Assembly (NCBI GenBank): GCA_026387455.1
Contig: JAPLLR010000046.1
Location: 4,921-68,920 of the forward strand
Source of the DNA: Candidatus Omnitrophota bacterium
Lineage (GTDB): Bacteria; Omnitrophota; Gorgyraeia; Gygaellales; Profunditerraquicolaceae
Length of the DNA: 64,000 nt
Reading direction: 5' to 3'
Below, one piece after another: positions 6,261 to 64,000 of the stretch. Positions within the stretch are counted from its first letter, which is position 1; each line of letters begins with the position of its first letter. The notes below the pieces were generated by a model. It saw only the letters and a list, made by a program, of their open reading frames with translations. It made no database searches and was not told the origin of the DNA. The position numbers and the translations under genes are program-made.

Positions 6261-6392
6261 CCCAGAGACGCTTTTAGCTTTGGCTTGAGGGGTGCTTTTG
6301 TTTCTAGGAGAGAAAACGCTATCAATTAGTTAGTTTTTAGCGTTGATAAAGTTGGTCTGCATGTTACACTTTACCTATACTGGAATAAAACT

Positions 6393-7886: not shown

Positions 7887-8139
7887 GTAATGAAACGAAA
7901 GGGCAAACCAGGAGTAATCCTGGGGCGCAAAGCCGCGGATCCTAGAAGTTGGATTAAATAATTTTAAGTTTCTAGTTGTTAGGATAGCCGGGCTGCCGAA
8001 TACCGACGAAAAAATCAGTATTTGCCAGTTCGGCTTTTATTTTTAAGTAGTTAATAAGTAGTTTTAAAAATACTTTATAAACGAGAATATGAAAAACAAG
8101 AGGTTTTACCTCATAGTATTTAAATTAAAAGTATAATAA
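7887..8139 (+). promoter_or_regulatory. long structured 5' leader of the giant ORF (candidate regulatory RNA element)
   Basis: Hairpin CCAGGA-GTAA-TCCTGG (7908-7923) with a GNRA tetraloop; further pairing potential at 7936-7956; weak hairpin plus T-run at 7995-8044. No tRNA or known riboswitch signature recognised. Confidence 0.3.
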
Positions 8140-11100
8140 ATGCCTAATCAAAAGCCACGGACAGAAGAAGAGAATTCGCTAGAGCAACCCGAGACCCAGG
8201 TGAAATTTGTTTCCAAGTTCCAGGCCTGGATCCGCGTGGTTGCTTTTATTGTTGTAGCGGTCTTTCTTCCGGAGCAGGTAGCCCAGGCAGCGCAGTATGA
8301 TTGGCGCGTGCTCTGGAACAAGCCCGGCGTGACAACTTTTACCCCCAACTATCTTGCTAATCCTGATTCTCTGCGCAATCTGGATATCCCCCTAACCATA
8401 AAGAAGATCCTCAGTGACATCGCCAATAAGCAAGTCAATGCCATAAAGCTTTCTGACAATCTTACCATTGAGCTGGATAGGCCTCTAGAAATGTCCACTG
8501 TGCGCATTGAAGAGATCTTCAACTGGCTCAAGGGCAGGCCTTGCGGCTCAAAAGCGCTTTATGATTTCTTAAGCTTTAAGGGTATCCAAGCCTCTGAGCA
8601 AGATATCGCAGTAATGGCTTTGACCGTGGATATCTTAAATAACGTGGTTAAGCCTGAAGGAAACCCCGAAATTATTCTCAACTCTCTATATGCTTTGTCT
8701 AAGGCTTCTGAGTTCTTCGGCCTTAAGACTTATCCGGTTAAGCTTGCAATAGGAGAGCCTGTTGCTTCCTTAGCGCCATTCTTGGCCCATGTCAACGGCA
8801 ATCACTATGTCTTAGTTACGCGCATAGCAAATGGCAAAGTATATTTCAGCGATCTGCATAAAGAAGAATTTTTGGCCCTAGATAAATTTGCCGAGAAGTT
8901 TACCGGCAATGCTTTAGTCACTCAGCTGATTGATGGCGTTACTGAGCTTAGCGTTAAAGAAGCGATGCAGGTGATGGGGGCAAATGACGATGATTTTGTT
9001 GGGCCTCCAGCTCCAGCGCCCGCTCCACCTAGCTCAGACTTTGTTGGGCCTCCAGCTCCTGCACCAGCTCCTGCACCTGCATCTGCTCCTGCGGCTCCAA
9101 GCTCGGCTTCGTTAAACTCAGGCTATCAGCCGGGCGGCTATAATGGTAATACTTGGGTTCCTCCTTCTGTTGCTACTGCTGATGGCGGTAGGGTTGCTGT
9201 AGGGCCGGTTAGTTCAGGGATAGCCGAAGCCTATAACGCAGCAAATGCAGCGCCTTCACTATCTGCGCCGGCTCCATATTTAGATCGTTTTCAAAGTTCT
9301 GATCTAGGCACAGCTCCTACACCAAAATATGTGGCTCCTTCAGTATCTGCGCCGGCTCCTGTCGCTCCAGCGGCAATAAAGTCTGCTGATTATGCAAGAC
9401 GGCAACAAGCCGAAAACGCATTTAGCTATAGTCCCGGAGCAGGCACTAGTGATTATTATAAAGTCCCGGTAATAGACCAAGAGACAGGGCAGACCATAAG
9501 AACAGAATTAGTGAACAAGCACATTACAGATAGTGCTGAATCTCGCAGAGTCGCTGAAGGATTATTAAAAGATCAGGGCATACAGGTCCAGGGATCTACC
9601 TTGACAACCCTTAAACCTTTAGAACAGCTTGGCACCGCACCTCTTCTCCCGGATAAAATTTTATTTGCAGGAGATGGTAAAACGCCATTTTTGTCATCAC
9701 TCCCTTCAGCGACTAACGGTATTCCTAATTTGGTGGAGCACCAGATCTTGGTGGTGGCTGAAAAAGGAACTCTTCATTATAATATGTATGTTCCTCAAGC
9801 AAACGCTGATATTGCGCCTATCTATGTAGGAGATCATGCTCAGCTGAAAGGGACTCCAGGTTGTCCGAGTGGAATTTGTATGGATGCTGGCTGGAAAGGT
9901 GATACTGCAGCTCGTAATGATGGTGCAGCTTTTGTAGATATTAAAACATGGACGGGATGGCATACAACTACAGGCGAAGTCGCACCCTATGAGCAATTTA
10001 CTAATGGGGTATTTCATATTGGTAAAACTGCGTCAGAGCCACATTTCTCAGGAAACCCTATTGAGAGAGTAATTTTGCAAGATAACGTTGCAGTAGGCAT
10101 TAGTACGCTAGGCCAAACTTCTGCTTATCAACAGCCGGTTGTACTAACTGATGGTACGAAAGTTTCTGCTGAAGGCTGGAGAAATAATTATACGGTTAAT
10201 GTAGTCAAACCGGTTGTCCAGGTAGGACCGGATTTGAAAAACACAAGATATGATGGTTTCTATGTATCGCATGATCAAGCTGGGAATTCTGTTGGAGTAA
10301 GCCCCCTGATGACTAGAGTGGACATAATGGCAGATGTAAACCAGAGGAAAAGTCAGGGGGAGCTATACACACCAACCATGCCCGGAGATAATGTCATAGT
10401 TTTCGCCGGAGATGTAAATTCTTATATTTCAACCGGGGCTGCGATGACTAAAGTTGAGGCATTTGCAAGAGTTCCTAAGATTACCAATGATTTTTATAAT
10501 TATCAGTGGGGCAATAATTTTTATCAGCCTAAAGAATTAGTTGGTTCAGCAGAAAATTATGCTACCGGGCAGGTAATACCTTTTACTAACCCTCAGGAAT
10601 TTATTGATAATACTCATATTAGAATTGCCGCTCCTTTGCAGGATGGAGTTAGCGCTACCGGAGAAATAACCAGTATGTCCGGCTGGAAACAGGATGGTTT
10701 TATGATCCCGCTTGCTCCTTTTACCTCGGCCGACGGGATGGGTTACACAAAGAACGAGCTCACCGGAAAAGTAAAATCGTTCAAGATAGAGGGGGTTGAT
10801 TTTAAAGTTGATTATGCCGCCAAGCAGCCCGATATATTTAATCAGAAGTTATCGGTATATGGCACCGGAGAAGCATTCGCGGTTTTACCGCCTTATAAAA
10901 CGGCGACTGATGGAGGGGCGAGCATCTATATGACAGGGACTAAGGTTGAATTAGGTGTGGGATATAAGGCGGGAGATTCAATAGCAGTTATTTCAACTCA
11001 AGGTATTCAAGGAGGCCGGATAGAATTTCTCGTGCCGAATTTAGATATTAATAAGAATATTCAAGATCAGATAAAAGATGCTACCCAGCCTATGGTTATA

Positions 11101-14100: not shown

Positions 14101-17100
14101 TATTACATTATTGACCCGGCAATGAATGTAGCCGGCAGAGGGGAAGTCGTTAATAAATGGAGAGATAGCGTAGCCCAGCAAACAGTCAGCATTTTAGGAG
14201 ATAAGTCGTCTACTTCAGTCACCTTTGATGAATTTGCTAATCAATCTACAGCAGTAGGGCTTGCAGAGAAATCCAATCCCCAAGGCTATATAGATAGTGC
14301 TGTAGCAAGGCGCATGGCTCAAAAGCAGACGGATGTTTCTTATAATGCAGATGGAACAGTTTCCGGATACCAGACGCTTAAATTTTCCGCGGACCACAAT
14401 GTTGCCACAGAAGTACAGGGTTTTGTATCCGGCACCACCTATGCTGCCAGATACGGGAATATGAAGCCCGGAGAAAGACATGTGCCGATTGTATATACAA
14501 ATGAAAACGGAGAGTATGACAATGATAGCGGATTCCGGGCGCCTGCATCGCGCACCATTGAAACGGATATTTACGGTACCCTTAAAACTGATCAGGGAAT
14601 TATTTCTGTGGGCCGCCCAGAAAACACCTTCAAGAGTCTGGCGATTGAAGGTAGGGTTCCTGATGGAACAGGTTCGACCAAAGGCGGAGTGATCGCCCAC
14701 GATATTTATTACGAGGCGATGAAAAAAGGCGATGGCTTTGAGTTTGTCGGTGGCACTATGGGTCAGGCGGATTTAGTGAAGATATTAAAAGGTGGAAATA
14801 AAGAGTCTGCCCCCAACATCTTAAATTCTGCGACTACTAATTTGAAAGAAACACAAGGCCTCCTTACAACAAAAAATAATGAACCGTTGCATTTAATGAT
14901 GGCTTCCGGGCAGTTCAATGATATTTCCTTTACTACAGGCGATCAGGACGGCAAACCGCAAAGTAGCACTAATCCAACCGCAGGCACATCCGCAGAAGCA
15001 GATGCCAAAAATAAGAGGCCATTGAATCCTGAATTAGACGCTAACAAGGCGTTTACCGGCAGGGTCACCGGTGAGCAGCACCTTAAATTTATGCCTTCTT
15101 TCAGCGGGGCCGGCGGAAGGGTGGAAGGGGATCTTTCTGACGTGGTAATAAGTACCACAGGGTTTAAACAGGCTGAGGTTAAGGAGCAAAACGGCAAGAC
15201 AGTGCTCAAAGATGCAAGCCAGCAGTTTACCCAGGTGCCTCTATTCTATGACCGCGAGAATCCGCAGGTGACCAAGAGGTTGTTTACCAGCACCCTAACC
15301 CCCGAGAAAAAGGATGGGGGTTTAAAGATTGAATTAAATGCCCAGGGCAATGTTATTACTGATCTGGCAGGCATAGCCGTAGGCGATGCTGCCAAGGAAC
15401 AAAGAGTACGCTCAAGCGAATTTTTGGCTGTGAAAGAAAAGGACCATGCGGGAACTAATCCTGCTGCCGACGGTGAAAAGATACAGGTGCGCCTGAGAGA
15501 TTTCTACACCGGCGGGCTGGTTCAGAAGAATGGTTCTGTGGTTTCTATTTTTGGGGAAACCGGAAAGCCGCTAGAAGAAGTGGACCCGATTGCAAAAGAT
15601 GCGGTAAGTAATTATCCGCTCACTAGGTCTTATATAGAACTGTCAGATCAGGACCTTGGCGAGTATAGCGGCACCCGGATAGCCGGGGGGATCAGGACCG
15701 CAGGTGGTGAGTCGATATTTTTCCATAATATTAGTGATCCGGAGACATTTGCCAGAGCAGAGCAAGCGGTTAAGCCGGTGCAAAAGATGACTGCCGAAGA
15801 AAATAAGGCTCTTGCCGAGAAGGTGGGCTTGGACCCTAAGGAGTTTAATAAGCCCGGCAATCAGCTGACCCCAGAGCAGATAGAAACGTTGGCCGGAAAA
15901 AGAAATATCTATAGCCTTAACCAGCTTTCTGCGGAACAGATAGATAAAGTAAGAGGAGAATTAAGCCGCTTAGGCCAAGACAGTCAGAAAAAAGATGTGC
16001 AAGCCCAAGCCGGAGATTTAGCCAGACAATTACAACAAATCAAGGCAGGCAGTATTACCCCGGAGCAGGCAGTATTCCTCTTTGGCGCGCAGGATTTGTT
16101 AAACCGCAACTTTACGCCATCCCGCCATCTCAATGTTTCTAAGAATGATTCAGGCGCAGTGCATGCCAAAGGAGAGCAGATACTTGATGCGACATTCTCA
16201 TCTAATATGGCTAATGAAGGCGGAACTATGAGCGCCAATATTACTAATATGGGAGTGAGCCTTTCCGAGAATTTGTCTGAAGGGGTCAATACCACTTCAG
16301 TGTTGGCGAACAGGCAGACTATGAAAGAGCTAGCTAAGAATGTTGGTGCTACGTATATAGGAAAGCCGCTGGATCAGATCGACGAAAGAGGAGAGGTGGT
16401 TTACGGAAAAGGATTAAATTCCGGACATTTAGGGCTAAGATTATCTGACAATTTTTATCAGGAAATTGCGGTGAACAAAGAAGGAAATGTGGTGACTGAA
16501 GGCGCAGGGATATTCGCTGGTACAAAAGAAAAGCCAGTATGGTTTTCTTATTTTGAAGGTGCCAAGGCGATCGGAGATAAGAAGGCAGAAGCCACTACGC
16601 TAGAGATGAATAATTTCCGGTATTCAGGTGTTCTTAAAGAAGGAGTAGTGGTGGCAAAGGAGGGATATGTAGATTCTCTCAAAGAAGTAAACGGCGGGAA
16701 GATAGAGCTTGGTAAAGACGGCCATGATCCGAGTAAGGGCCTGCGCACTGCCGGAGGCAAAGAGGTATTCTTTACTTCTTTGTCCACCCCTGAGGCTTTT
16801 GGCGGCGATCCGCAGGCGATGAGGAAGCAGGCGGCTTTAGAGAATGCAAGGAGCTTAAGGGCAGCAGGGAAAAGTGATGCGGAAATCGCCAAGATGCTTA
16901 AGGTTGAGCAGAAGTATAGCAAAGAGGATGCTGAACAGATTATCCGTGAATCAAAGGTAAAGCCTAATGTGGTCGCAGAAATCAAGAAAGAAGACTTAAG
17001 GAAGCTTGAGGTGTCTCCTGATTTCAAGGCAACAGGAGTTCAGGTATTGCTGCCTTCTTTCTCAGCAAACCTAATGCAGGAAGGTGGAAAGATTACCGCA

Positions 17101-20100
17101 GACTTAAGAAAGACCGCCATATCTTTTGATAACCGCATGGTCGGCCAGGGGCTGGCCACCACTTCTGTGATAAAGGATGGTGAAGTTGCTTATGTGAAGG
17201 GTATATATGCGCCATGGAGTATGGGTAAGGTTGATTTCAGGTTAGTAATTGATGACAATGGAAACATGGTTACTAAGGGTGGCGGGGTATTCGCCGGCAC
17301 AGCTGAAAACCCCATAGAATATGCCTATCAGGACGCTTTCCGCGCCAAGGGAGAGAATTTGACTGAAGCCTACCAGCTGCCTGAGCCCATTAAATTAAAT
17401 AATTATTACTATGATGCAATACTCGGCGAGGGCGGTCTAAGTATCCAGAGTGGCAAAGTAGAAAGCATAGAAGTGGCCGGTAAGGAGATAAAGCTTAAAG
17501 GCCATGATCTAGCAAAAGGCATGATTACTGACAGTAGTACTCCTACCTACTTATTCTTGGGCAGGGTTTCCCGCTTTGACAATAAAGGCAGGCCGCAGAA
17601 AGAGGAAAAACAAAGCTCTACCGAAGCATCGCAAACATGGGATTTTTCTGCCGGCAAGGAAGCTCCTGCTTTTGATCTATCCGGATCTTTCGGCGGGACT
17701 TACGGCAACGTACCTTTTATGGACATAGTAAACAAAGGGATTAATGATACCTTAGATAAAGCGGCGCCTCAAGATAGAAAAAAATTCGTAGATGATACGC
17801 TTGCGGCGCAGACTCAGCGCGCAGAGGCAAAGGGAGATGTTCAGGCGATGCTAAAGGCAGAAATGGAAAAGGCAAGCAGAAAAGATAATCTGGGTATTGT
17901 CTTGTCCGGAGATGATTTCAAGGCCAGAGGCTCGCAGAAGCTGGACTTTACACCCACCAGCAACCTCTTTACTGACGGCGGCGGAACGATCTCAAGAGAC
18001 ATTACTTATAACAACTACACCCTGGTTGTAGATAGTAAGCAGCTGGTGCCTATGGTTACTGACGGAAATGACACCAAAGGTATCTTCCAGAATAAGGCAT
18101 CAGGCAGGATTTCTATCGCAGGCGGTAAATTGGGCGGGCAGGTGCTTACTCCTGGCGCAGGCGTATACGCAGGAACTAATGAGCGCAGAATAAATGGCAC
18201 ATACCAGGATGGAATATTAAATTCTATCTATGAAGCCTCTGGCCCGGTTCCAACTCTCTTAAAGAATTATTATTATACAGCAGAGGTCAAGGATAGCGAT
18301 AGTGACGGCATAGGCGATTCCCTGAATCTTTTGGGGGGAAAAGCGCAGAATATAAATTTTGTGGGCAGGGATTTATTGCCTAATGGAGATTATGAGCTCA
18401 ATAAATCCGGGTGGGCTATTTTCGGCGACTCCAAGGGCAAGTTAGCCCGGATCGGCAGTTTTTCACCTTCGCTTACTCTCTTTAGCGAGCGCGGGCAAAT
18501 TAACTTAGATAAAGATACGATTTTAGGTTCTTTATCCAAAGATGACACAACCTTAAAACTCATGACCACTATCGATGTCGCAAAGTATAGGAGCCTGCTT
18601 GCGGCTGAAGGGTACAGAACAGAAATAAAGAGAAATGATCTTTCCGGAATAAATTATATCCTTATTTACGATGAAAAGAATAGGGAGGTTGGCAGCGCAG
18701 CAGTTAGCGATGACGGCCTGAGGGTGAAGGGGGGAGTAATTCCCATCGCCAGAGACACTGAATCAGACACTATTTTCCGCGTGTACATGTATACCGCTGT
18801 TAAAGATGATAAGATTTACTTGAAACATGACGCATGGAATATCGAACAAGGCGTTGATGACGGCAAGACATTCAATCAGCTAGCTCGAGACGATAACGTG
18901 AAATGGGGACACAGGATGTTTTTGAGAAGTGACGAGACTGAGGGCGCGGACATGGCTGTGGCGCGGATGATGTATGCGCATGGTGTTGGTTCAAGGGGCG
19001 TCTGGTTTAATGATTATGATTCAAGGGATAAGCTGCTCAAAAAGTTTGACAGCGGAGAATATAACTGGTTTAAGATGCAGGATAATTTACTTACCCAAGA
19101 AAAATACACAGGTACAGCCGTCAGGAATTTCTACAAGACTTGGGGTTTTGTCCGCAATTTTCTGCCTGCTGCTCCTAGCGTTGAAGCCAGAGCGGACCAG
19201 AGTAATGGCGGGATGGTTTTGGAAGCAGTGGGAGATGCTGCTTTGATTGCCGGGCCGTTACTCAAAGGAATCGGCGTTGGCGCAAAGGGTCTGCAACTTA
19301 TCGGTGGGACAGCAAACGGTTCCTCTAGGGTAATGAGGGTAATCAACGCAGCAGCCAAATTGGAAGGAATGAGCACTCTTACCAAGGGAAGTGTGCAACT
19401 TGCCACCAAAGGATCAGCCAGTTCTTCTAGAATAATAAGCGGCCTAAGCAAGGGACTTCTTTGGGAGGGCAGGATTGGAAAAGCGGCGCAAGTAGCACAA
19501 GGTACCACTCGCGTTGCGAGCGCTGCCCAGAATCTCTCCTGGGGTTCCAGGGCCTTAAGAGGCGGCTGGAATAGCGGAAAATTTCTGGCTGGTCGCGTTG
19601 CGCCGCGCGTCGGCCTTTACGGCACATTAGGCGGTATCAACAGCTACAATTCCATGTCTGCTGAACAGAAGGATTGGTATTCTAGCGGTAGAGCAGCAGA
19701 AGCGTCGAAGGATTCACAGAATCATGCTATTGCTTTAAGGGATACCTTTAGAAGCTGGGCAGCCAACTGGGAAGTGGGGCTGGATGGTGCCATAGGAAAT
19801 AAGGCAGATGCTGATAAGGCAGATAGTGTTTCCAAAGGCCTGCAGCAGAACGCTTCCGTAATAACGCAGAATAATTCCAAAGCGATTAAAGAAGCAGTCC
19901 CGGGCCTAGGGGGAAAAATCCTGGCGATGCCGATGGATGTTGAGCAGACCCTTTTGGGTTTTGCCGGTTTTCCTTCGAATGCCTCCAGGAATATGGGCAA
20001 ATACGGCATAGCACAGGGTTCAGCAATGAGTGGTTGGAGCATGTACAGCTATCTTTCCTCTGTTGCGGAATCAGGAATATATGCATTGACTTCCCTCGAC

Positions 20101-23100
20101 GGCTATTTTAGGAATTCGGTTTCAGACTCCTACTATCAGGGCTCTATCACTGGGGGATGGGAATCTTTATTAGGTGACGGATTCAGCAATTTTGTCAATC
20201 CTGAAAAGAGCAAAGACACCAATCCTATAACCAATCCCGAGCAGTATGCGGGATTGAGTTATTTCGCAACGCAGATGTGGTTATTGGGCGGTTACAAAGA
20301 AGGTGCAGGCCTAAAGAAAGGCGAAGCCAGAGGCACTCCGCTTTTAGATACATATCAAACCCTGACAGCCATAGAGCTTACACCAATGAATCTTATGCTT
20401 TTCCCCGGAAATGAGCTTGGTAGGCAGGTGGGCATGGTAAAAGAAGCGGCGACAGCAGGTAGAACTGAAGGCGATGCTTCTTCTTTCCGCGGCAGGTTAA
20501 ATCAGCTCGGAAACGCAAATGGCGGCCCCGGGCATCAGTTTGTGGAAAATCTTATTTCTGCAGCCCTACCTTTACGTTCTCCGCAAGCAACTCCTTCGAA
20601 TAAAAGTGAAGTTGCTCCTGTGCAATCTTCTACGGAAGCGGGAGGAACAGTAAGGTTAAATGAAAATGATGTAGTAGGCGATAGGGGCAGAAGAGCGGGG
20701 GGTAGCGATGTGAAGGCTCCTGCTTCTCAGCCTGAAATGTCACGTCCTAACTTCTTTCAGCGTTGGAGTCAGCGTAGTTATCTAAAGCAAGAAGGATACT
20801 CTTTTTCAGAAAGAAGAGCGATTGCAGATGGGCGTCTTGCGCCTACAGATAGAAGTGGAAATGTCAGGGCAGACGTAGTAAATCGTTTTAATGAGATTGG
20901 CGCTACTCCGACTTGGGTTGGAAGATCGCTTAATCGGGCAAGAGAAGCCACCACCACTTGGATTAAGAATCAGATAGACGCCAGCCCCACAGTGAACTGG
21001 TTTAAGAACGATGCCTTTGATATGTCTAAGTCTCCTGTGGTCGATGCCGGCAAAAAAGTAGCTGGCGCAGTAGCTGATGCAGGAAGGGCCACCGCAGACT
21101 GGGCTAAGAATGACGCACTGGATATGTCTAAGTCTCAGGTAGTCAACTGGGCCAAAGACACCAGCGTCGGCAAATGGCTGGCTAACGATGCCTTTGATAT
21201 GAATAAATCTCTTGTGGTCAACTGGGCAAAGAATGACGCCGCTCCTTGGGTCAAGAATCAGATAAATACTAGCCCCACAGTGAACTGGTTCAAGAATGAC
21301 GCCTTTGATATGTCTAAGTCTCGGGTTGTCAACTGGGCAAAGAACACTGCTCTTCCCAATATCGCTGCCTCTGCCAATCCTAAGAACTGGACCACCTATA
21401 ATTGGGCTAAGACAGCTGCTATCTGGGCAAGAGACACCGCCACCCCCTGGATTAAGAATCAGATAAATACCAGCCCCACAGTGAACTGGTTCAAGAATGT
21501 TTGGCAGCTTGCTACTTCCTCGCAGTATCGTTTCCTCAATAGACGCGGTATTAAAGATCCAACTACGAGAGCTGCAATCATCAGGGACGGATATTCAGCT
21601 CCGGAATCTCCCAATAAGACCTTATTTTATGAGATGCGCGCTGATCAATATTTAAAAGACAATGGTTTCTTCTTTAGAAGGCAAAGAACAGCGATTAGGC
21701 AAGGGCGTTTAAAATCTAATGATTTGAGTCTTAGCCGTGATTTTAGCGAAATTCGTAAGGGGCGCGTAGTTTATGATGAGGCGGCCCAAAATGATGTTTT
21801 ATCATCCGGCCGCAATGTACATCTGTCGATGGCTGGTGAATGGGCAGCGGATATAGGCGGAAGGAAGAAGGGTGATGGCGGAAGATCGTTAGAAGCCAAG
21901 ATTCTAAGAGTAGAAAAAGGCGAAGACGGCGCGACTCGCATTTGGTTGGATACAGAGGAGATCTTCGGTGGCCGCGGCGCTACCTCAAGGGACGGAAAGA
22001 CCATATACTTCAGCCGCAACGCGCACGATGGGACAGATGTGCATGAAAGCACAGAAGCAGCCTTGCTATCTAAAGGCATATCCCCGTCAGCGTCACATAA
22101 AATAGCGGCAGAGGCTGAGGTAAGGTATTTAGCGCGTACGCTCGGCTATGACTTAAATGATCCCAGCCAAAGAATGCTAGTAGAGGAAATGGCAAGGAGC
22201 CATTCTGATGCCACTAAGGTCGCTAATAAGGAAAGGGCTCCGCCAGCGCCAAAATCGCCTTCCCATGTAGTTGTTGCTCCCGCAGAAGGACCGGGTTTTA
22301 GAGCTGCTGTTGGAGAAGGCGAAAGTATCAGCGATGTTGCCATAAGAGCTGGCCGCAGGCCAGTAGCTATGCTTACCGAAGGCACACCCAGCGATGCCTC
22401 TCGTTCCAGAACCGCAGCCAATCCCGAATCCGAAACCGTATCTAAATCTCAAGAAGCAATTAAACAAGATAAGCTGACCAGAGAGGCCCGGATATCTGAA
22501 TTCAGGCGGCAGCAGGAAGAAAGACAGGAAATTGAAAGAGCCCAAAATATACTTGGGAGTAAGGATCTTAAGCCGCAATTTATCTTTGCCCCTGAGACTG
22601 GCAGGCGCGTATTCATCGCTACCGCTGATGGAAAGGTGGCATTAGTAAAACATGGAGAAGAGGCGCCGGATATATCCCGCAGACCCATTGCCCTTCTTCC
22701 TGCACCTAAACCTGCGATCGAAGTAAAATCTGAATCCAAATCTGCACCCGCGCAATCTAAAGAAGTTGCGGAATCCAAAGCCCAGCCTGATGATAGAGTG
22801 TCTGTGTCTAACGAAGCCAGGCTTAGGAATGAACAGGCCAATCAGGAAAAGAAGGCTGAGTTTAAAGCAAAACAGGAGAAACTTGAAAGAGTAGCAAAGA
22901 TTGTTTCTGAGACGCCTAATACCGATAAAGCCAAGCTAAGAGTGGCTAAGGAAGTAGTTAAAGATAGAAGCTTACCTAAGAGGGAGCGTTTAGCAGAGGC
23001 AGATAAACTTATAGAAGCAGCAAAGCCATATGCACCCAAGAAAGAAGCTGCTAAGCCAGAAGTCAAAGAGCCGGTTTCTCAGTTGGTTGAATTAGGCGAT

Positions 23101-26100
23101 GGTAAAGGCACGATCAAGGTAAAGGTAAATAATCCGGAAGCGCTCGCAGGAGACCAGAAGAAATTAGAGAGATTAAATCGCGCTGTCGCTAGGATAGAAA
23201 AACAGAATTCTCAAGCTCAGGATGAAGCGGTACAGGGCCAGATTCAGGAAGCTGGATTCTGGGCGAGATTAATCGGCAGAAAAGGCCGTTCAGCTTTTGA
23301 AGCCAGTCCTTCATCCAACCCTGCCGAAAGCCCCGCATTAAAAGAATTAAAAGCGCAACGCGATGCCTTAGCCGAGAAGATCACTAAGAATATGTCGCCT
23401 GTCCCTGAAGCTGATTTGGCCAGACAACATCTCCAGCAATTAAGGAAAGCCATAAATATTCTTAAGGAGACTACTGACTCTGACCGGGCTATGGATAGAG
23501 TGGTTAAGGAAGTAGTCAGCAAGGATAAAAAGCAAACCAACAAAGAGCGCCAAACAGAGGCGAAAAGGTTTATAGAAGAAGCCAGGCGCTATCTGCCTGA
23601 ATCGCAAGCCCCTAAGCCTGTTATACCAAAAGGTCCATCCGTCGTATATTTTGGCAACGAAAGCGGGCCAGTACAAAAAATCCATCTTAGCCCCAAAGAA
23701 ACAACGCAAGATGCAGCAGCGACAGCAGCGAAGGTTTTCCGCAAGCCTATTGCGCTTCTACCTGCTCATATATCTGCACCCAAGCCATTCTTTAGCAGAG
23801 TGATAGATGCCATAAAATCGAAGTTCTCTAGATCTGCTAAGTCTTCCGAGCCAGAGTTACTGCCTTCAGCTAGTCAGGAAGCAAAAGAGGCGATTAGAAA
23901 AGAAAGAGTAGCACAGAGAGATCAGCTTAAGAAAGTAGCGGCCATAGTAGCCGAAGCCGAGACTCCTGGTCAAGCTAAAGTAAAAGTAGCGCAGATGCTG
24001 CAGAGCGAGCCGGCTAAGAAAGACCTATCCAAAGAAGAGAGAAAGGTAGCTTTAAAGAGAGCAGAAGAGCTTATAGAAGAGGCAAAACCGTATGCACCTG
24101 AAGTCGAGCAAGGAAAAGAGCATGCCAGCAAGATCGAAAAAGTTACCAAGATCCTTCAGCAAACCACTGATTCTGATCAAGCCAGGGCAAAAGTCGTAAA
24201 AGAAGTAGTTTCAGACGGTAGAAAGCAGACTAAGAGAGAAAGAATTGTTGACCAGCGTAAGGCAGACCAGTTGATTGTAGAAGCCAGGCGCCAACTGTCT
24301 AAATCGCAAACTCCTAAGCCTGCTATGCCAAAGAGCCCATCCGTCATAAACTTTGGTAATGAAAGTGGGCCAGTAGTAAGAATCAACCTTGGCCCCGGAG
24401 AAACTGCGCAAGATGCAGCAGCGAAGGCTTTACGCAAACCTATTGCGTTTCTACCCGCACCTAAATCCCAAGCCAACAGGCAAGAAGTTGCTAAGCCTGC
24501 TCCATCCGAAGATGTTCGGCCGATGTCTGATGAAGCCATAGCTAAGAATCGGCTGGACAATAGGCAAAGGATAACTGAATGGAAAAACCTGAAGAGAATA
24601 GGACAGATACTTTTCGAAACAGCAGATATCCAGCAAGCCAAGGCAAGAGTAGCGCAAGAGGTGCTTGGGGTCGGTAAGGAAAGATCCCAGAGAGAGCAAA
24701 AAGCTGCGCTTAGGAAGGCAGAAGGGCTTATAGCAGAGGCAAGGCAACATGTGCCTAGCGCCACCACCACTACTGTTGCTCCCAAGTCCAAAATGACAGA
24801 GGTGGCTAGGATCGTGCGCGGTGAGAATGGCGAGCCTGCATTTGAGGCACATCCGACTATGAGTTCCTCCAGCGCGCAGTTGAAGGAGTATGTAGCTACA
24901 GAAGAAGCAGCCCATCTGACATTAGGTAACAGAGGCACAGCCGCGGAAGAAATCGCTGCTAATGTATTTACCCTTGAACGCTTAGGCATACGCGATGCTG
25001 AGAAAGTTACTGATCCGCATTTAAGAGCTTTAGCAGAGATATCATTGGACCATGGCGTAGAGAGCCCCATAGTAAGGACTGCCCGTTTTTATAGCGAGAT
25101 AGATGCGCAATTAAGAGACCAGCTTGTAGACAGCCATGGTAATTTGCGCCGGGACGTTTTGGATAACGCTACTAGACAGCTTGCGGGCCTTAGGAAAAGA
25201 AGCAGCGATGTAGAGGCTCGCAGAGACCATTTGAAAGATTTATTATCCTGGTCGCGCATAGCCGTCAGTAAGGAAGGCCAGCCTCAAGAAGTTTTGGCGC
25301 GTTCGCCGTTCAGGATGGCAGACGCTGGTAAAGAAAGCGCGCAGAAGACGCTAAGTGAATTAATTAGTCAAAGTAACTCCTTGTCTACAGAAGAGGCAAA
25401 AGCTCTTGGGGTTGCAATAAAGAATGCAATAAAATCAGGAACGCCAATTGATCAAATACAAGATCCTACCATTAGAAAGGCAGCTCAACTTTGGAAAAAA
25501 GCTTTTGAAAGTCCAGAGCTAAGAAAAGTGATGAGCTTAGAACTTAAGGAAGATCAGATAGCCCAGACTATATTAGAGGCTGTATCGAGGCCGATACTAG
25601 GTAGAGATTTGGGTGCTGGAAAGACAGCAGGTGATATCGCAGCCTTTGCAGTTCGTTTCCAGGTAGCTACGCAAGAAGGTAAAGAATTGAATGAAAGTTC
25701 TTGGAAAATAAAAGATTTCTTAATTGAGCAAGCAATTGATGGCTCTGACCCCATAGCAAGATTTTTTATGGAAGAAATCGCTAAATCCGCAAAGATATTG
25801 AGATGGGTTGTCGTGCCAGATGGAAAAGGCGGCACAGAGTTTAAAGAAGTGCCTATTGATGGTTTTGAAACCCCAGCGGACGCAAAGAGTAAATTTATTT
25901 TTGCTGATAGTGAAACTCTACTAGAAGTTTATCTAGGAGCAAAAGAGAAGAATGGCGAGAAAATGCGCGAAGCATTTAGGCAACTTACAGGAGCTAGCGC
26001 AGACGAAACACAGCTTTTCTTTGCCAATGCAACTTTGATTAAAGCAGAAATAGGGAAAATGTTTAGTCAGTTAAGTAGGGGAAATATTAAAAAAGCAGAG

Positions 26101-44100: not shown

Positions 44101-47100
44101 AGAAGATACCTGCGCGATGTGCTTATGGTGCTGGAATGGGAGTTGTCAAAACAGAATGCTATCAAGGACCGCGCCTCATTGTTCCCGACTGCCCAGGAGC
44201 GTAAAGACGAAGCTGCAAGCGTTGATACGCAGAAAGCTCAAGACGCCCAGAAGGCCGGAATTGGGGCGATAGCTAAGGTTTCTTGGTTAGGCGTACTTTG
44301 TTCTTTTATCGGTCACAGCATCCAGGAGAGGGAAAAGAGGTTCTGGGACAGGGTTGCGGATTATTCCGGAGCTAGGAAGGTCTTTTACTTTGTCTTCGCT
44401 TTAGTTGCATTCATTCCTAGTTCAGCATTGGGGATAGCATTGCATTTTGGCAAGGCAGCCAGAGATTTCTTTATCCGTCATCAGGATAGGAACAACGAGG
44501 AAGCTTTTAGAATGCATGGCATGATGGCTGGTAAAGAGCTTTTGAAATTAGCCGACGCAGAAGAGCATGTAAGGGCTGCGTTTATGATGGCGGATAGGAT
44601 CAGCTTGAGCGGTAAACCTTCCGCCAATGTTTCGAATAGTATCAGGTTAAGCAAGAGGGGAATCTTCTGCCGGGAATGGTGGCGCTATCACTGGTTTGCC
44701 GCCAGAATGCGTTGGCCTAATGTCACCGGTGCCCTCTCATTTGTTAAGAGCAGGGTGGTCTTATTGATTTGCGGTTCCATCATCAGCTGGCCGATTGTCT
44801 ACGTTCTTTGCATACACTGCCCATGGTTGGCTAATGCTGTTCCGTTAATCAAGCCGCTCTTAGATGGCTGGGCTGTCAAGCAGGGCTTCCCGATTACCTG
44901 GGCCGAAATCTTGAAGATATTCTTCCTAGAGCTCTTCCTTACCTTCTTCCAGAACCCTGGTCTTCTTAGGGATGAATTATTGCGTTTTAATGGAGCGCAG
45001 AGCATTATTCAGGTCGAGCCCGGAAAGGCCAGCGCAAATATTGATAGGGGCATTATAAAAGGATTAAATGAGAATAATATGAGCACCAGGAAATTATATA
45101 ATGCCGGCTATGTTATCTTTACCGGAGCCCCGCATCTGAAGCTATTATTTGAGGAGAAGTGGGGAGCCTCCCGCGATAGCCATCCTTTGATTACCCTGAA
45201 AGCTTTCGCAAGCAATATCCTTAACGTAGCTACTTTAATGGTCCCGCTAGTAGTTATTCCCACGATGCTTTATACCTTATCTAGCTGGCATGTAGCATCA
45301 GCGGTCCTTATCTTATCGCTTTCTTTAGTGGCCTTCTTGGCTCCCAGACAATTCTATGTGTATATAGCGTTTAAACTCTCTCCGCCAAAAGACAAAGAAG
45401 CGCAGGATAGGTTGAAAAGAAGAATAGTGTTCGCCGCGGCATTGGATAAGCAGAAAACTGATTTCTTAAAGGGCGCGTGGGGGCTATCCATCATCGGAAT
45501 TGAAATCGGCGCCATCCGTGAATTAGGTCACCTGATACAGGGCCCGATAGGCACCATCGCTGATATTTTTGAAGGGCCGGAAGGCGCCCTGTCTCTCGGC
45601 GGACGCTTCTTCTCTTACTACGAAAGCCAGATCTGCGAGCATGTCTTTGGAATGCAGATTGACCAGCAGGATGAGCAGGATAAGAAAGAAATAGTTAGCC
45701 AGTTCCTTTATAATTACTTCGGCGGTAAGGGCCCGATGGAAGCAGCGTTTGCCTATGCCAGCTATCGCAATCGCGAATATTCCAAGGCCGCGCAGCTTAT
45801 GTCTGGCATCGTGAGTAGGTATGATTTAGATCAAGAAGGCCGTAACTTGACTGACAATGTCATGAAGGCTAGCGGTGAAGGCCTATCAGATAACCTTGGA
45901 AAGGCGATGAGGGAAAACGCCGAGGCCAGGGAAAGGCTTGCCAAGAATCGCGATAGATGGATAGCAGATATGGCGGACAGTCCTTATTTAAGCCAGGAAG
46001 CGTTTCTGGGTATGTTTGGCGTTGACGGATTCGAGCACTATTATAACGCTGTTGGTGACAATAAGAATAAGCTGGATCAGACTTTGCCTAATTCAGTCAA
46101 AGAAGTAAGAAATAATCTGATTCAGACAGCTCAAGTTGCTTTTGAGAAATGGCTCGTCAAAGGCGGGTTAGCAGAAGATTCCTTGCCTGTCGAGTTGATA
46201 GTAGCCAGGCAGTCTGATGTGGCTGAACCGGTTTCTGGCCAGCAGCAGGTGGCGGTATTAAGAATAAACCCTTTAACCAAGGAAGCCAGGATTTACTACT
46301 GGACCTCAGATGGGGAAACGGCTAAAACAGAAGTTTCTTGGGCCAATATTAGCGGAATAGTGATACCTGAAGGATTAAAGCAGTCTGTCATTGTTCTGAC
46401 CTCTCAGGAGCTCTTGACTGGCGAAGGTAAGGATGCCGGGTTCATCGTGCAGGCAAAAGGCCTGATCGAGGCGGTGTTAATTGATATCAAAAAGACCAAG
46501 ATTACCCTTGCAGAAAAGGACATTGATACCAGGGTGCTGGAGGAGCGTAAGGCAGAAGCGCTCAGGATAAAGGGCGTAAGCCGCCAGACTGAAGCCATCC
46601 ATATCAACGGAAACGGTAACGGCGAAGACACCCAGAGCATTATGGATAAGTTGATCAAGTTGGGCCCCAAGACCTGGCGCCAGCTTTTGAGAGGAGAGAA
46701 TCAGCAGGATTTTGTGAGCGTGATTAAGGCCATGGAAAGGGCTGGCTATCTGGATGACTGGAGCGAGGATGGTTTAACCGCAGCCATGGAGGCCTTCTGC
46801 AGGAGCAAGGGAGATTTAGATTTTAGGAAAGATTTCGCGAAGGTAAAAGATGCCGTCGTCAAAGAGCTGAGGGAGAGGGTCGGAATAGAAAAGGAAATAG
46901 AGAAGATCAAGGTAGAGATCAAGAAGGTTGATCCTTTAGAAGAGGGCAAGAAGAAAGAGCTCAAGATTAAAGAAGTAATGCTTGAGATAGAATTAGCCCA
47001 GATGGCTAGCAAAGTAAAGGATGCAGTCAGGGAGACCAAGGAAGATAAGGCAAGCGTAGCCACCAAGATAGGTAATTGGATTGGTCGCCAGAAGACAGAG

Positions 47101-59100: not shown

Positions 59101-62100
59101 GGCCTTGAAAGAGGAAAGATGATCCAGCTCATCCTGGTCCATGAATTAGGCGCGCGTTTCGGATTTGCCCACGAATCCAACATCAGCCTTGAGGAGATCT
59201 ACAAAGGTTATATGGGCTGGGGCTCTGAACAGGCTAAGGCCGGCGAGGAATTGCTGAACAGATTAGACAATTTATTCCAGAAGACCCACACTATCGTAGA
59301 TTACAATTATGACGGTGATGGTACAGACCTTGCAGCCGCTGATGCTGCAGGCGACGCAGAGCCGTTGGCTCTGGATCCGTTTGCTCCCGGGACTACCGAA
59401 TACGAGTTGGTGCACGAGAGCGCGTTCCTGAGTCTTTTTGGCGTGAGCAGCTATGATGACTGGGTTGCATCTTTTGGAGAGGATTCCGCTGCCCTTGACT
59501 GGGTAGGCGGCAGGGCTCAGGAAGTAAGCAGTAATTATGGAGGCAGCGTCAGCGCTTATATTAATGATCTTACGGTCGTGCAGTCGTTATCTACGGCTTT
59601 AGGTAGCGCTTCTATGGGAGCAAAGACGATTTTCGAAGGCGCTTATCAGGTGAGCATTACTCAGCTTACTTGGCATACTACTGCATATATGACCGAATTG
59701 TTTAGTGTTGTGGGCAGTTCTGATTGGGAAGGGGTAACACAGTTCATTGATTTCTTAGAGAAAGTCGCTAACTTTGACGCAGCTCTTAAGTCAAGCTCCT
59801 ATAGCACTCAGATAGATGCCGATATCTTATACAGCGCTTTTGGCGTGCGTTTCTTAGATGGCATCAGTAAGGCAGAGCTTGGCATAATCGGAGACGAACA
59901 GTACGGTATACTTTATGACGAGCAGGGTAATGTCAGGGATGCCAGCGACGCTATTAGTTTCTATGAGTCGGTGTATCTGTTCTACGCCGCTTGGCAGTCC
60001 AGTTCTGTCTCAAGCCAGCTTAACTCTACCATATTTGTACCTGCTTTCGGTCTGGATATTTCTAACGGCATACAGGCCGCTGACCTGGTCATCTTCGGCA
60101 ACCAACATTACGGGCTGCTTTACGATGAGTCCGGCAACGCTAGAGACGCCAATCAAGCCATAGATTTCTATACCAAGGTATATCAGTTCTACGCCGCCTG
60201 GCAGTCCAGTTCTGTCTCAAGCCAGATTAATTCCACGATTTTTATCTCGGCCTTTGGCCTGGATCTTTCTAACGGCATACAGATAGCGGATTTGTTAGTG
60301 TTCGGTAACCAGCAATACGGATTACTGTATGATGAGTCCAACAACGTTAGAGACGCCAATCAAGCTATAGATTTCTATACCAAGGTGTATCAGTTCTACG
60401 CCGCCTGGCAGTCAAGCTCTGTCTCAAGCCAGATTAATTCCACGATCTTTATCCCAGCTTTCAGCCTGGATCTTTCCAATGGTATACAGATAGCGGACCT
60501 GCTGGCATTCGGTAATCAGCAGCAGGGTTTACTCTATGACGAGCAAGGTAATTCTAGAAGCGCTAGTTCCGCTATTGAATTCTATGGGGCAGTATATCAG
60601 TTCTACGCCGCCTGGCAGTCCAGCTCTATGGCTAGTCAGGTCAACGCTACTTTATTCATTCCTGCTTTCGGTCTGGATCTTTCTAACGGAATCCAGGTTT
60701 CAGATTTGCTCGCGTTCGGCAACACGCAGTATGGCTTGCTTTATGATGAACAGGGCCACGTCAGAAGCGCAGATGCGGCTTTAGATTTCTATATTTCCGT
60801 TTATCAGTTCTACGCCGCATGGCAGTCTAACTCCTTTGCCAGCCAGATAAACTCCAGCATATTCATCTCTGTCTTCGGCCTGGATCTTTCTAACGGTATC
60901 CAGGAAGCTGATTTAATCATATTCGGCAACACGAATTATGGATTGCTCTTTGATGAGCAGGGCAATTCCAGGAATCCCAACGACGCCATAGATTTCTATG
61001 AGGCGGTGTATCAGTTCTACGTCGCTTGGCAGTCTAGCACTTACGCCGTAGCCATCAATACCCTGATCTTTAACTCCGCTTTTGCTGGGCTGGATCTCTC
61101 AGATGGTATTCAGATGGCGGACCTTTCGGCATTTGGTAACAGGAATTACGGCATACTGTATGATCAGGCAGGAAATTTAAAAGACCCTAATGCCGCGATC
61201 GATTTCTACGAGGCAGTAGTAGAGTTCTACAACGCCTGGAATGCCTCTAGCCTGAAGAATGACATCAACAGCATCATCCTCGGCCCTGTCTACGGCATCA
61301 ACTTAAGCGACGGTATCAGCGAGGCAGAGCTTGCCGCCTTCGGACGCAACGACCAGACGACCGGACATTACAATCCGCTTTATGACGATCAGGGCAATCT
61401 CAGGGATCCGCAGGACACCCTGGACTTCTTCGCGGCAGTGGTCAGCTTCTACAACGCCTGGAACGCCTCTAGCCTGAAGAACGACATCAACAATATTATT
61501 TTTATTCCTGCATACGGTTTGAATCTGGCAGATGGGTTAAGCGAAAGTGAGCTGAGCATAATGGGCGATGGAACTTTAGGCATACTTTATGAAACCGCCG
61601 ACCACTTAAGGGATGTAGATAGGGCCATGGAGTTCTATGAGGCCATAATCGTCTTCTATCAGGCCTGGAACGCTTCGCCTTTAAGGAATGAGATCAATAC
61701 ATTGATCCTGATCAACGCCTATGGTATCGACTTATCTGACGGCGCTATACAGTTAAGCGAATTGAGGGCTTTGGGTATCTACGAGTCTATTCCCAACGCT
61801 CCGCTTCTATATGACGAGAACGGGCAATTAAGGGACGCCGCTGACACAATGGATTTCTTTGAGGCGGTCGTGGGCTTCTATCAGGCTTGGAATACTTCGT
61901 CTTTAAGGAATGAGATAAATTCCCTCATCTTAATATCCGTCTACGGCATAGACTTATCCGACGGCATTAATATTTCCGATATAAACGCCTTCGGCAATAA
62001 AGACCCGAATAAGCCGTATATGTTATATGACCAGGACGGCAACCTGAATAACGCATCTGACATCATCGATTTCTTTGAACTGGTGGTTGAGTTCTATCAG

Positions 62101-64000: not shown

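Follow-up and report, generated by a model that had tools for sequence, protein, structure and literature searches.

The window, meaning the whole 64,000-nt stretch analysed here, holds the first 55.9 kb (the 5' part) of one real gene from an uncultivated Omnitrophota bacterium, with a frame that is open and coding throughout. We are confident in the fuller reading as well, namely, that this is a real giant gene of the C39-headed Omnitrophota family and that it carries a conserved riboswitch leader.

Open reading frame and coding status

8140 to 63999, + strand: giant ORF, 5' part only; 18,620 codons, stop-free, continuing past the window end

Translation of frame +1 across 8140-63999 gave zero TAA, TAG or TGA in 18,620 codons, where about 1,083 in-frame stops would be expected from the base composition (ln P of none = -1115). 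This bears out the initial annotation, which had described a stop-free frame from the ATG at 8140 to the window end, with TAA TAA immediately 5' of that ATG (located at 8134-8139) and with anchor points at 9628, 32401, 32761 and 33121, all of which are in phase with 8140. Its further claim, of a real continuous coding frame whose C-terminus lies beyond the window, also stands, the frame being open to the window end and codon statistics supporting coding. An alternative genetic code, considered as the source of the open frame, is irrelevant: no stop codon of any kind is in frame, so the result is independent of the code. The other five frames had 24-176 stops each per full 4.5-kb bin, and their longest open stretch was 545 codons. 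GC1 exceeded GC2 in all bins of the giant ORF, with a coding signal that was even lengthwise, and codon usage in the ORF quarters correlated with that of five flanking genes at r = 0.76-0.86, vs. 0.03-0.14 when read one base out of frame. Homologues align from residues 1-7, which supports the ATG at 8140 as the start. The ORF had been missing from the ORF track because that track omits ORFs running off the sequence end.

Recognizable motifs had also been claimed across the whole length, which overstates the matter: only four curated families were found (C39, M50-like, ICMT/PEMT and receiver), and Pfam, NCBIfam and PDB sequences gave no match for over 95% of the protein, so that the case for coding is made by codon statistics and not by motifs.

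It is very improbable that the long frame is an assembly artefact, that is, a chimera of strain or gene fragments joined in phase or collapsed at repeats. The gene does contain tandem repeats, and giant genes with local assembly errors have been described in the literature; however, such errors normally break frames, and here 18,620 codons are free of stops where some 1,083 were expected. The window contains no N, and its DNA repeat pairs are all at most 85% identical, leaving nothing to collapse or mis-join; GC content, codon-position pattern and codon usage stay uniform from one end of the ORF to the other; and in relatives the same head likewise leads into ORFs that continue past the contig end.

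To look for the continuation of the ORF, metagenome contigs were searched with an exact 60-mer from the window end, which matched none of them, and with the last 350 aa of the visible protein, which had no relative among them. For the flanking gene at 6393-7637, no database record of the exact product was found.

The 5' leader

7853 to 7880, + strand: promoter-like site TTGACA-16 nt-TATACT with extended TG, matching 11 of 12 consensus positions (consensus match only)
7893 to 8001, + strand: c-di-GMP-I-type riboswitch aptamer, best model RF03167 (c-di-GMP-I-GGC, clan CL00126)
7986 to 8044, + strand: intrinsic-terminator hairpin (7986-8035) and U tract (8035-8044), from ViennaRNA folds

The promoter-like site lies 13 nt 5' of the aptamer, which in turn lies 138 nt 5' of the giant-gene ATG on the same strand. 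The aptamer matched RF03167 over the full length of the model, at 64.7 bits (gathering score 59) and E 5e-13. Since this best-scoring model is the 'GGC' variant, c-di-GMP is named here as a putative ligand, by sequence likeness. Aptamers were found upstream of 18 of the 22 related genes, 80-184 nt before the ATG, scoring 57-66 bits on RF03167 or RF01051 (clan CL00126); two related loci, L019 and L020, had none. The 5' arm of the terminator is the reused 3' strand of the aptamer, and on this ground the hairpin at 7986-8044 is the predicted expression platform. Hairpin and U tract were kept in all 19 of the 19 leaders aligned (alignment A4; 12 pairs, one with a compensatory change).

In the mechanism that we propose, transcription would start near 7885; without ligand the terminator at 7986-8044 would form, and with c-di-GMP bound the aptamer would hold the 5' arm of the terminator, letting polymerase read into the giant gene. 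The folds thus predict that the leader is probably a c-di-GMP ON switch, which would tie a costly protein to the attached, high-c-di-GMP state.

A similar arrangement is found in Clostridioides difficile with CD2831, CD3246 and PPEP-1 (PMC11477304), where a c-di-GMP leader RNA with a transcription-terminator platform controls the gene of a cell-surface protein whose fate is linked to proteolysis. The two differ in that C. difficile uses class II riboswitches as ON switches and class I as OFF (PMC11477304), whereas the aptamer here is of class I type and predicted to be ON, and in that the C. difficile protease is a separate secreted metalloprotease under opposite control (PMC11477304), whereas here a cysteine peptidase domain lies in the same chain.

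The conserved head

8218 to 8271, + strand: N-terminal hydrophobic helix, aa 27-44 by hydropathy (helix 27-42 in the model)
8323 to 8925, + strand: peptidase C39 (double-glycine peptidase) fold, aa ~62-262; PF03412 at 32.6 bits vs. a gathering score of 22
8947 to 8982, + strand: double-glycine-type leader motif LSVKEAMQVMGA, aa 270-281, with predicted cleavage after Gly280-Ala281

Conservation in the family is limited to the first ~281 aa, which comprise a membrane helix, the C39 fold and the double-glycine leader motif. The helix is unusually conserved, with F27, W30, R32, A35, F42 and P44 invariant, and is followed by PEQVAQA. An AlphaFold model of the head (pLDDT 76.8) returned LahT150 (6mpz), PCAT1 and the ComA peptidase domain as the top Foldseek matches to the C39 region, at probability 1.0 and with TM-scores of 0.64-0.74 against isolated peptidase-domain entries; 3b79 was also returned at probability 1.0. 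Because the family C39 profile found no PDB sequence at E <= 0.01, the assignment is made from Pfam and fold. The putative catalytic residues are C135 and H222, each present in 26 of 26 sequences, and D238, present in 22 and replaced in the other four. His222 and Asp238 are 16 residues apart, as are His101 and Asp117 of LahT150 (PMC6363468), and from order and spacing Cys135, His222 and Asp238 would be the equivalents of the LahT150 triad.

Fold and Cys/His/Asp arrangement are thus those of the C39 domains of PCAT1, ComA and LahT150 (PMC6363468). The context is another one: PCAT C39 domains are fused to an ABC transporter, whereas this one is unfused and has a membrane helix before it, and Pfam detected no ABC transmembrane or nucleotide-binding domain after it, which is not the PCAT architecture. 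Also unlike the PCATs, protease and leader-like motif here share one chain, with the 'leader' C-terminal to the protease and a 'cargo' of more than 18,000 aa behind it.

Predicted self-cleavage after the leader motif

The strict leader motif occurs once in the 18,620 aa, against an expectation of 0.04. Within it G280 and I/V278 are conserved in 26 of 26 sequences, A281 in 24 of 26 and E274 in 23 of 26; 34 of the 38 homologues keep the motif, as do all 21 close loci long enough to include it, and it is also present in distant loci of 27-38% identity. Right after A281 family conservation collapses. With the substrates of PCATs (PMC6363468) the motif has in common Leu at -12, Glu at -8, a hydrophobic residue at -4 and Gly-Ala at -2/-1. 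Residues 272-277 are modelled as a helix and 279 as a bridge, with pLDDT 92 up to residue 280 and 47 beyond; this matches the two-turn leader helix and linear P3-P1 segment of LahT150 (PMC6363468). Secondary structure and pLDDT, the grounds used here, suggest that the motif may be docked in the C39 active site.

The C39 head would then bind a leader-like helix, its own or a neighbouring chain's, and cut after Gly280-Ala281, whereby the variable body would come away from the conserved anchor and the protease. We put the prospect of C39 self-cleavage at this site at only slightly short of even.

LapA of Pseudomonas offers a comparison: this very large protein leaves the cell by a type I system and is held at the surface by an N-terminal retention module, from which the cysteine protease LapG releases it at a di-alanine site under c-di-GMP control. 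The likeness lies in a large protein, a cysteine protease cutting at a small-residue site near the N-terminus and the involvement of c-di-GMP; there is no sequence relation between LapA/LapG and the giant protein here. LapG is moreover a separate periplasmic protease of another family, and its control runs through the receptor protein LapD and not through a riboswitch.

Layout of the giant body

8992 to 9399, + strand: Pro/Ala-rich low-complexity linker, aa ~285-420, seen in the sequence, with short tandem repeats at 9050-9092
15325 to 18375, + strand: diverged internal repeats, aa 2,396-3,412 (self-BLAST, 26-28% identity)
22240 to 24804, + strand: diverged internal repeats, aa 4,701-5,555 (self-BLAST, 28-53% identity; DNA repeat D6)
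28342 to 45342, + strand: membrane-helix-rich section, aa 6,735-12,401 (Kyte-Doolittle scans)
30055 to 30534, + strand: M50 or site-2-protease-like candidate module of intramembrane metalloprotease type; PF02163 at E 4e-5 to 1e-4 and 22-23 bits, below the gathering score of 27.2
32179 to 32490, + strand: ICMT/PEMT-type membrane methyltransferase, aa ~8,014-8,117; PF04140 at 31 bits vs. a gathering score of 24, and PF04191
42571 to 42999, + strand: response-regulator receiver domain, aa 11,478-11,620; PF00072 at 38.1 bits vs. a gathering score of 30.2
59707 to 62949, + strand: 14 tandem copies of an acidic helical repeat of 69-74 aa, aa ~17,190-18,270

Behind the head the protein is nearly an orphan, residues 301-1500 giving eight weak matches among 1.84 billion proteins. 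The body runs from ~6,400 aa that are cysteine-poor and have no membrane helices, through ~5,700 membrane-rich aa, to more than 6,200 aa again without membrane helices. All hydrophobic helices other than the N-terminal one fall in the membrane-rich section, between aa 6,735 and 12,403 (~30-45 depending on threshold, by hydropathy scan only). Cysteines number 57 in the visible protein; the first 6,700 aa hold just five of them, and 37 lie between aa 8,060 and 12,227.

Three enzymatic or signalling modules, the M50-like one a candidate, were recognized, all within the membrane-rich section. The M50-like module, which also drew an NCBIfam daptide HExxH protease match (E 0.0018), has its HELGH (aa 7318-7322) within a hydrophobic helix and an NLIP...FDG pair at aa 7426-7452, with NLIP (7426) and FDG (7450) unusually far apart. 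The ICMT-type module contains RHPQH and matched the NCBIfam isoprenylcysteine methyltransferase family (E 1.2e-5). In the receiver domain, for which PDB sequence matches were 3kcn and 8pdc, the expected residues are all there: D11484/D11485, the phospho-acceptor D11547, S11581 and K11605.

The ~70-aa repeat array has a pI of 4.05 and no Cys. Its alignment was built from non-overlapping two-repeat windows, and the repeat has two sequence relatives, both Omnitrophota; its fold is confidently predicted, with no solved structural relative, and comparison by fold gave no dockerin match. A 'Glyoxalase' Pfam match in the array was rejected as a sum of short repeated matches of which no single stretch passes. 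A SecA-like ATPase suspected at aa ~5,820-6,360 (LGAGKT, GFTATPG, HLGRAGTEGRAGG) was demoted to a mere lead: it had no Pfam support, phmmer against PDB found nothing at E <= 10, BLASTP against E. coli SecA gave a best E of 0.4, and a homologue search was unsupportive. The remaining Pfam and NCBIfam matches, with E between 0.001 and 1, were treated as noise.

With two protease-type modules in the chain, we also weighed a polyprotein, translated once and then divided by its C39 and M50-like proteases into numerous smaller functional products, leaving no giant in the cell. The possibility has been raised by West-Roberts et al. (10.1101/2023.11.21.568195), and loose Gly-Ala/Gly-Ser leader-like sites do occur at aa 1,124, 10,051, 12,279 and 17,186, of which the one at 17,186 immediately precedes the repeat array. 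However, the strict motif is found only at aa 270-281, the count of loose sites (five vs. 2.3 +/- 1.6 expected) is not significant, and domain boundaries bear no other marks of cleavage sites. The protein of a cultured relative has been reported as expressed, with peptides mapped, although this does not settle the state of the protein. We judge a polyprotein distinctly improbable.

Relatives and published giant proteins

1820 to 2893 and 2994 to 4322, + strand: two type II/IV secretion (GspE/PilB-type, T2SSE) ATPase genes; PF00437, E 1.8e-47 and 1.9e-31

The head had 38 homologues, nearly all annotated as Candidatus Omnitrophota or Omnitrophica 'C39 domain-containing protein, partial', and 35 related GTDB loci, all in Omnitrophota-type genomes; in 21 of the 24 close loci the ORF likewise runs off the available sequence. 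The gene belongs to the published group of Omnitrophota giant membrane proteins with an N-terminal C39 peptidase, and the earlier guess of an Omnitrophota-type giant gene agrees with all the homology evidence. Of the features that mark large and giant proteins of this phylum, we found the Omnitrophota genome, the N-terminal C39 near a signal-like helix (the PF03412 architecture cluster) and numerous membrane helices. A length of at least 10,000 aa is termed 'large' and is the threshold of the Nielsen & Lui catalogue, and at least 30,000 aa is the strict 'giant' of West-Roberts; the 18,620 visible codons make the protein 'large'.

The length had at first been called exceptional, which does not hold within the phylum: 165 of 176 complete Omnitrophota genomes (94%) have at least one protein of at least 10,000 aa (10.64898/2026.06.07.730766). 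The same work had by 2026 catalogued 5,761 proteins of at least 10,000 aa, the record being 147,155 aa, and the giant ORF itself is one more, partial, case of a phenomenon catalogued in thousands.

With the C39-headed Omnitrophota giants (10.1101/2023.11.21.568195; 10.64898/2026.06.07.730766) the protein shares a length above 10,000 aa, a C39 domain beside a signal-like helix, many membrane helices, a largely unannotated and sequence-unique body, and type II/IV secretion genes and a transposase nearby. The two T2SSE genes listed above and a transposase gene lie upstream of the giant gene, a setting already described for giant genes. Conserved gene order upstream of the relatives was looked for and set aside, synteny being weak (just one T2SSE and two IS200-like matches in 35 loci).

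Other Omnitrophota giants differ: the visible 18,620 aa yielded no SecA_DEAD, glycosyl transferase, HEAT, NUDIX, dockerin or TSP3 domain. Among the Archaeovorin domains (glycosyl transferases, glycosyl hydrolases, NUDIX, SAM methylases and HEAT repeats) none was detected there except the ICMT-type methyltransferase, and the Dockerin-type domains PF00404 and PF18884 had no match. Because these domains are absent from the 18,620 aa seen, the protein falls under neither the 'Archaeovorin' nor the 'Dockerin-type' definition. A divergent SecA_DEAD or SecA preprotein-binding domain has been reported for most giant genes (West-Roberts 2023, 10.1101/2023.11.21.568195; Nielsen & Lui 2026, 10.64898/2026.06.07.730766); SecA_DEAD (PF07517) had no match at E <= 1 in the 18,620 aa, and the domain may lie beyond the window.

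Proposed role of the body

The N-terminal helix and the central helices would place the protein in the cytoplasmic membrane. Its body would serve to attach the cell to a host or prey, working at the surface or at the membrane, as has been proposed for this protein class, and the receiver domain would supply a cytoplasmic signalling input. The visible 18,620 aa showed no adhesin, glycosidase or SecA domain, for which reason the surface-attachment role is taken from the literature; by analogy with the class we propose it tentatively, at somewhat less than an even chance.

Alternatively, the bulk of the protein may be cytoplasmic, tethered to the inner membrane face as a scaffold or multi-enzyme assembly, with the C39 domain working inside the cell. 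A receiver domain has to lie in the cytoplasm, the cytoplasmic face is where ICMT-type enzymes work, the C39 domains of PCAT transporters are cytoplasmic (PMC6363468), and 46% of long proteins are 'TM-only', read as membrane-anchored cytoplasmic proteins (Nielsen & Lui, 10.64898/2026.06.07.730766); the visible 18,620 aa, in which no adhesin or carbohydrate-active domain was found, point the same way. Three observations speak against a cytoplasmic bulk, none of them decisive: the first 6,700 aa with their five Cys and a Pro/Ala-rich linker of the envelope-protein kind, the hydrophobic helix and A-Q-A site before C39, and the secretion-system genes that flank the gene. We consider a cytoplasmic bulk unlikely, though less so than a polyprotein. 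Should the C39 domain be cytoplasmic as in the PCATs, the picture of release from the surface would change.

A possible head and leader module

Combining these parts, we put forward, as a reading more likely wrong than right, that the ~281-aa head and the RNA leader are one module reused before otherwise unrelated Omnitrophota giant bodies, in which a c-di-GMP ON riboswitch would govern transcription and cleavage in cis by a membrane-anchored C39 peptidase would release or activate a cargo of more than 18,000 aa, much like a bacteriocin precursor. Neither the riboswitch leader nor a double-glycine motif after C39 appears in the two papers on Omnitrophota giants (10.1101/2023.11.21.568195; 10.64898/2026.06.07.730766). 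If true, bacterial giant proteins would have their first proposed mechanism of regulation and maturation, and a C39 peptidase would be acting in cis, which is unusual. Should both the riboswitch and self-cleavage hold, cells would couple giant-protein production to the second messenger behind attachment in many bacteria, and the conserved head would make sense as a device for maturation. The organisms are almost all uncultured, and the leader RNA and the head can both be tested without culturing. Riboswitch leader and double-glycine motif are conserved across about 20 species-level genomes.

The giant open reading frame

Retranslation of 8140–63999 in frame +1, beginning at its ATG, gave 18,620 codons without a single TAA, TAG or TGA, with TAA TAA immediately 5′ of that ATG, so the stop-free frame to the window end described in the initial annotation was reproduced. 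Base composition predicts ∼1,083 in-frame stops (ln P of finding none, –1115), 24–176 stops per full 4.5-kb bin interrupt each of the five other frames, and the second-longest open stretch anywhere in the window is 545 codons. Since all three stop codon types are missing in frame, the choice of genetic code is irrelevant to this result. The sole reason that the ORF list lacks this entry is that it leaves out ORFs running off the source.

Mis-assembly is unlikely: GC1 exceeds GC2 in every bin of the ORF, its GC content is even along its length (the lowest bin, 26,001–28,000, is at 0.398), and the codon usage of each ORF quarter correlates with that of five flanking genes at r = 0.76–0.86, dropping to r = 0.03–0.14 when the reading is shifted by one base. 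There are no Ns in the window, and its DNA repeat pairs are all at most 85% identical, so that nothing in the sequence favors a collapsed or chimeric join. The giant ORF is an open coding frame. Its length, which had been called exceptional, is instead ordinary for the phylum: of 176 complete genomes, 165 encode one or more proteins of ≥10,000 aa, and the longest on record has 147,155 aa (10.64898/2026.06.07.730766).

Relatives of the giant gene

Using the first 1,500 aa as query, 38 proteins were matched at 46–60% identity, aligning to only the first 17–25% of the query; almost every one bears the name 'Candidatus Omnitrophota/Omnitrophica ... C39 domain-containing protein, partial'. Scanning GTDB species with one genome each found 35 related loci (L001, L002 and so on), every one of them in an Omnitrophota-type metagenome-assembled genome (auto-labelled Planctomycetia in a few cases), which shows the Omnitrophota affiliation of the gene. 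The window's own genome is outside this set, as the best locus is only 66% identical. Of the 24 close loci, 21 have a head-led ORF that runs off the end of the available sequence. The C39-headed ORFs of the close relatives L001, L002 and L008 close inside the locus, after 409, 2,158 and 2,810 codons, and may be shorter genes or frameshifted assemblies.

A riboswitch leader

An Rfam scan of the window returned one match only, a c-di-GMP-I-type aptamer ending 138 nt before the ATG at 8140. The leader comprises:

7853–7880, near-consensus promoter-like site; the aptamer starts 13 nt later
7893–8001 (+), c-di-GMP-I-type aptamer (RF03167, 64.7 bits vs. 59, E = 5e–13)
7986–8035 (+), hairpin followed by UUUUAUUUUU, a terminator predicted by folding; the whole aptamer–terminator leader spans 7893–8044

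Because the 3′ strand of the aptamer (GCCGGGCUGCCGAAU) doubles as the 5′ arm of the terminator hairpin, the two structures would be mutually exclusive, and because ligand binding should block termination, the leader is predicted to be an ON switch, by which c-di-GMP would turn on transcription of the giant gene. The best model is the 'GGC' variant of the c-di-GMP-I type, with c-di-GMP the predicted ligand.

The arrangement recurs among the relatives. Eighteen of the 22 close loci with enough upstream sequence (L001–L009, L012–L014, L016–L018, L021, L022 and L024) have an aptamer 80–184 nt upstream of the ATG; among the other four it lies further upstream in two and is absent in two. These aptamers score 57–66 bits with RF03167 or RF01051 as best model, the terminator hairpin and U tract occur in 19 of 19 leaders, and 18 of the 23 aptamer matches in the ∼414 kb of related loci scanned fall at the leader position. 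This comparison of predicted structures shows a conserved aptamer–terminator leader of the giant gene. Some further c-di-GMP-I aptamers of the related loci are not directly before a C39-headed ORF: L006 5787–5934 (+), L015 6289–6393 (+), L026 7801–7885 (–), and two in L011, 862–950 and 8596–8686 (+).

The word 'riboswitch' is absent from both giant-gene papers (West-Roberts et al. 2023, 10.1101/2023.11.21.568195; Nielsen & Lui 2026, 10.64898/2026.06.07.730766), and literature pairing it with Omnitrophota or Omnitrophica consisted of unrelated papers only. West-Roberts et al. report PilZ genes located downstream of giant genes, as well as GGDEF domains inside the latter, which fits a c-di-GMP link.

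A C39 head with its own leader motif

The conserved head (aa 1–281, counted from the ATG) contains a C39 peptidase domain (Pfam PF03412, 32.6 bits vs. a threshold of 22) set between two shorter elements:

aa 27–44, hydrophobic helix at the start of the head, unusually conserved in sequence
aa 270–281 (window 8947–8982), double-glycine-type leader motif LSVKEAMQVMGA, ten residues beyond the last strand of the C39 fold

An AlphaFold model of the head, built from 26 sequences (pLDDT 76.8), matched the known C39 peptidases LahT150 (6mpz), PCAT1 and the ComA peptidase domain in Foldseek with probability 1.0, at target TM-scores of 0.64–0.74 for isolated peptidase-domain entries. All 26 aligned sequences keep Cys135 and His222, 22 of them Asp238 as well, and the His-to-Asp spacing of 16 equals that of LahT150 His101/Asp117 (PMC6363468).

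C39 peptidases recognize Leu–12, Glu–8 and Leu–7 ahead of Gly-Gly, Gly-Ala or Gly-Ser; substrate residues –4, –7 and –12 occupy a hydrophobic groove, and the stretch –11 to –4 is a two-turn helix (PMC6363468). Counted back from Ala281, the motif reads L–12, S–11, E–8, A–7, V–4, G–2 and A–1. Its conservation among the 26 sequences (Gly280 and Ile/Val278 in all, Ala281 and Ala275 in 24, Glu274 in 23) falls away right after residue 281, the exact end of family conservation, and the model, helical at residues 272–277 with 279 as a bridge, has a pLDDT of 92 over residues 271–280 and 47 beyond. In its strict form the motif has a single match among the 18,620 aa (0.04 expected). The motif is present in 34 of the 38 homologues and in 21 of the 21 close loci reaching that position, and is also kept in distant members at 27–38% identity. 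We infer that aa 270–281 are a substrate bound by the head, with cleavage, in cis or between neighbors, after Gly280-Ala281; alternatively, these residues may be a non-cleaved, auto-inhibitory pseudo-substrate. Neither giant-gene paper mentions a double-glycine motif after the C39 domain.

In a distant subgroup (L028, L029, L030 and L032) a leader-like motif ∼280–300 aa into the ORFs ends in Gly-Ser, directly followed by a hydrophobic FFPLIF-type segment, suggesting that cleavage site and membrane helix are arranged differently there. Loose leader-like sites are within chance expectation in total; one, ELFSVVGS then SDWEGV (window 59,695–59,718, aa 17,186–17,193), lies directly before the 70-aa repeat array.

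An orphan body and its topology

Beyond the head, two regions bracket ∼6,300 aa without membrane helices:

aa ∼285–420, Pro/Ala-rich linker
aa 6,735–12,403, membrane-rich section, with roughly 30–45 hydrophobic helices by hydropathy

Two sets of diverged internal repeats precede the first central helix. Embedded in the membrane-rich section are a module with HELGH inside a helix, only probably M50/site-2-protease-like as its Pfam score is under threshold, and two above threshold: an ICMT/PEMT-type membrane methyltransferase and a response-regulator receiver domain that has its full set of signature residues. The last region, >6,200 aa without a membrane helix, holds 14 tandem copies of a 69–74-aa acidic repeat. 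Cysteines number five in the first 6,700 aa (one the catalytic Cys135), 37 in aa 8,060–12,227 and 15 later, with the 1,080-aa repeat array free of them; this uneven spread might reflect compartment.

For >95% of the chain, neither Pfam nor NCBIfam nor PDB sequences gave a match. Compared against the 35 related loci, the whole protein has just one shared module besides the head (aa 3,810–4,063, with L014). Exhaustive HMMER searching of 1.84 billion representative proteins gave eight matches to aa 301–1,500 at E ≤ 0.001 (best 1e–22, 34% identity), likewise without Pfam domains; for the repeat region there are two relatives, from Omnitrophota in both cases, and for aa 5,750–6,450 the homologue search gave none. 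At the sequence level, a conserved head on an orphan body agrees with the report that long Omnitrophota proteins are overwhelmingly sequence-unique, with the PF03412-only architecture one of the two largest architecture clusters (10.64898/2026.06.07.730766). SecA/SF2 ATPase-like motifs (LGAGKT, GFTATPG and HLGRAGTEGRAGG) occur at window ∼25,600–27,200 (aa ∼5,820–6,360), directly before the first central membrane helix and partly within the lowest-GC bin, and published giant proteins have SecA-like domains at a comparable place; no search supported a SecA or SF2 ATPase there.

We propose that the giant chain would be anchored in the cytoplasmic membrane, that the head would separate from the body at Gly280-Ala281, and that the body would act at the envelope, where it would contact a host or a prey cell in line with the proposal for proteins of this class, with the receiver domain as cytoplasmic input. 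Conservation of the head with its motif is shown, as is the domain list, in which the M50-like module is only probable; topology, resting on hydropathy, is the weakest point of the mechanism. For that reason, and because transporter C39 domains lie in the cytoplasm and the giant ORF within the window gave no adhesin or glycosidase domain, a largely cytoplasmic, membrane-tethered scaffold is a serious alternative for the body.

Comparison with known systems and gene neighborhood

Published C39-headed Omnitrophota long proteins share with this one a length >10,000 aa, the phylum, the head, membrane helices and nearby secretion genes. Within the window the giant ORF falls outside the Archaeovorin and Dockerin-type definitions and has no confirmed SecA-like domain; with the shared features, this makes it an incomplete member of that group. 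Taken separately, riboswitches of this class and the C39/double-glycine system are well known. The new observations are that both are associated with giant genes in a conserved manner, and that one chain carries protease and leader together; each of these two observations is accessible to experiment.

Upstream lie two type II/IV secretion ATPase genes, a TPR gene, two unannotated genes and a transposase gene, in line with the secretion or pilus genes and mobile elements reported adjoining giant genes (giant-gene literature, including 10.1101/2023.11.21.568195):

4441–5058 (+), IS200-type (Y1) transposase gene, ∼3 kb upstream of the giant gene
6393–7637 (+), gene for a 414-aa protein, directly upstream of the riboswitch leader

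Transposase homologues at 65% and 40% identity (L006 6774–7343 and L001 6619–7158) lie at a similar distance upstream of the C39-headed genes of two other genomes. The 414-aa product, without a Pfam match and with its exact sequence not on record, begins with an N-terminal hydrophobic signal-like segment, and its gene contains tandem DNA repeats of 69 nt (6551–6757) and 102 nt (6756–7061).
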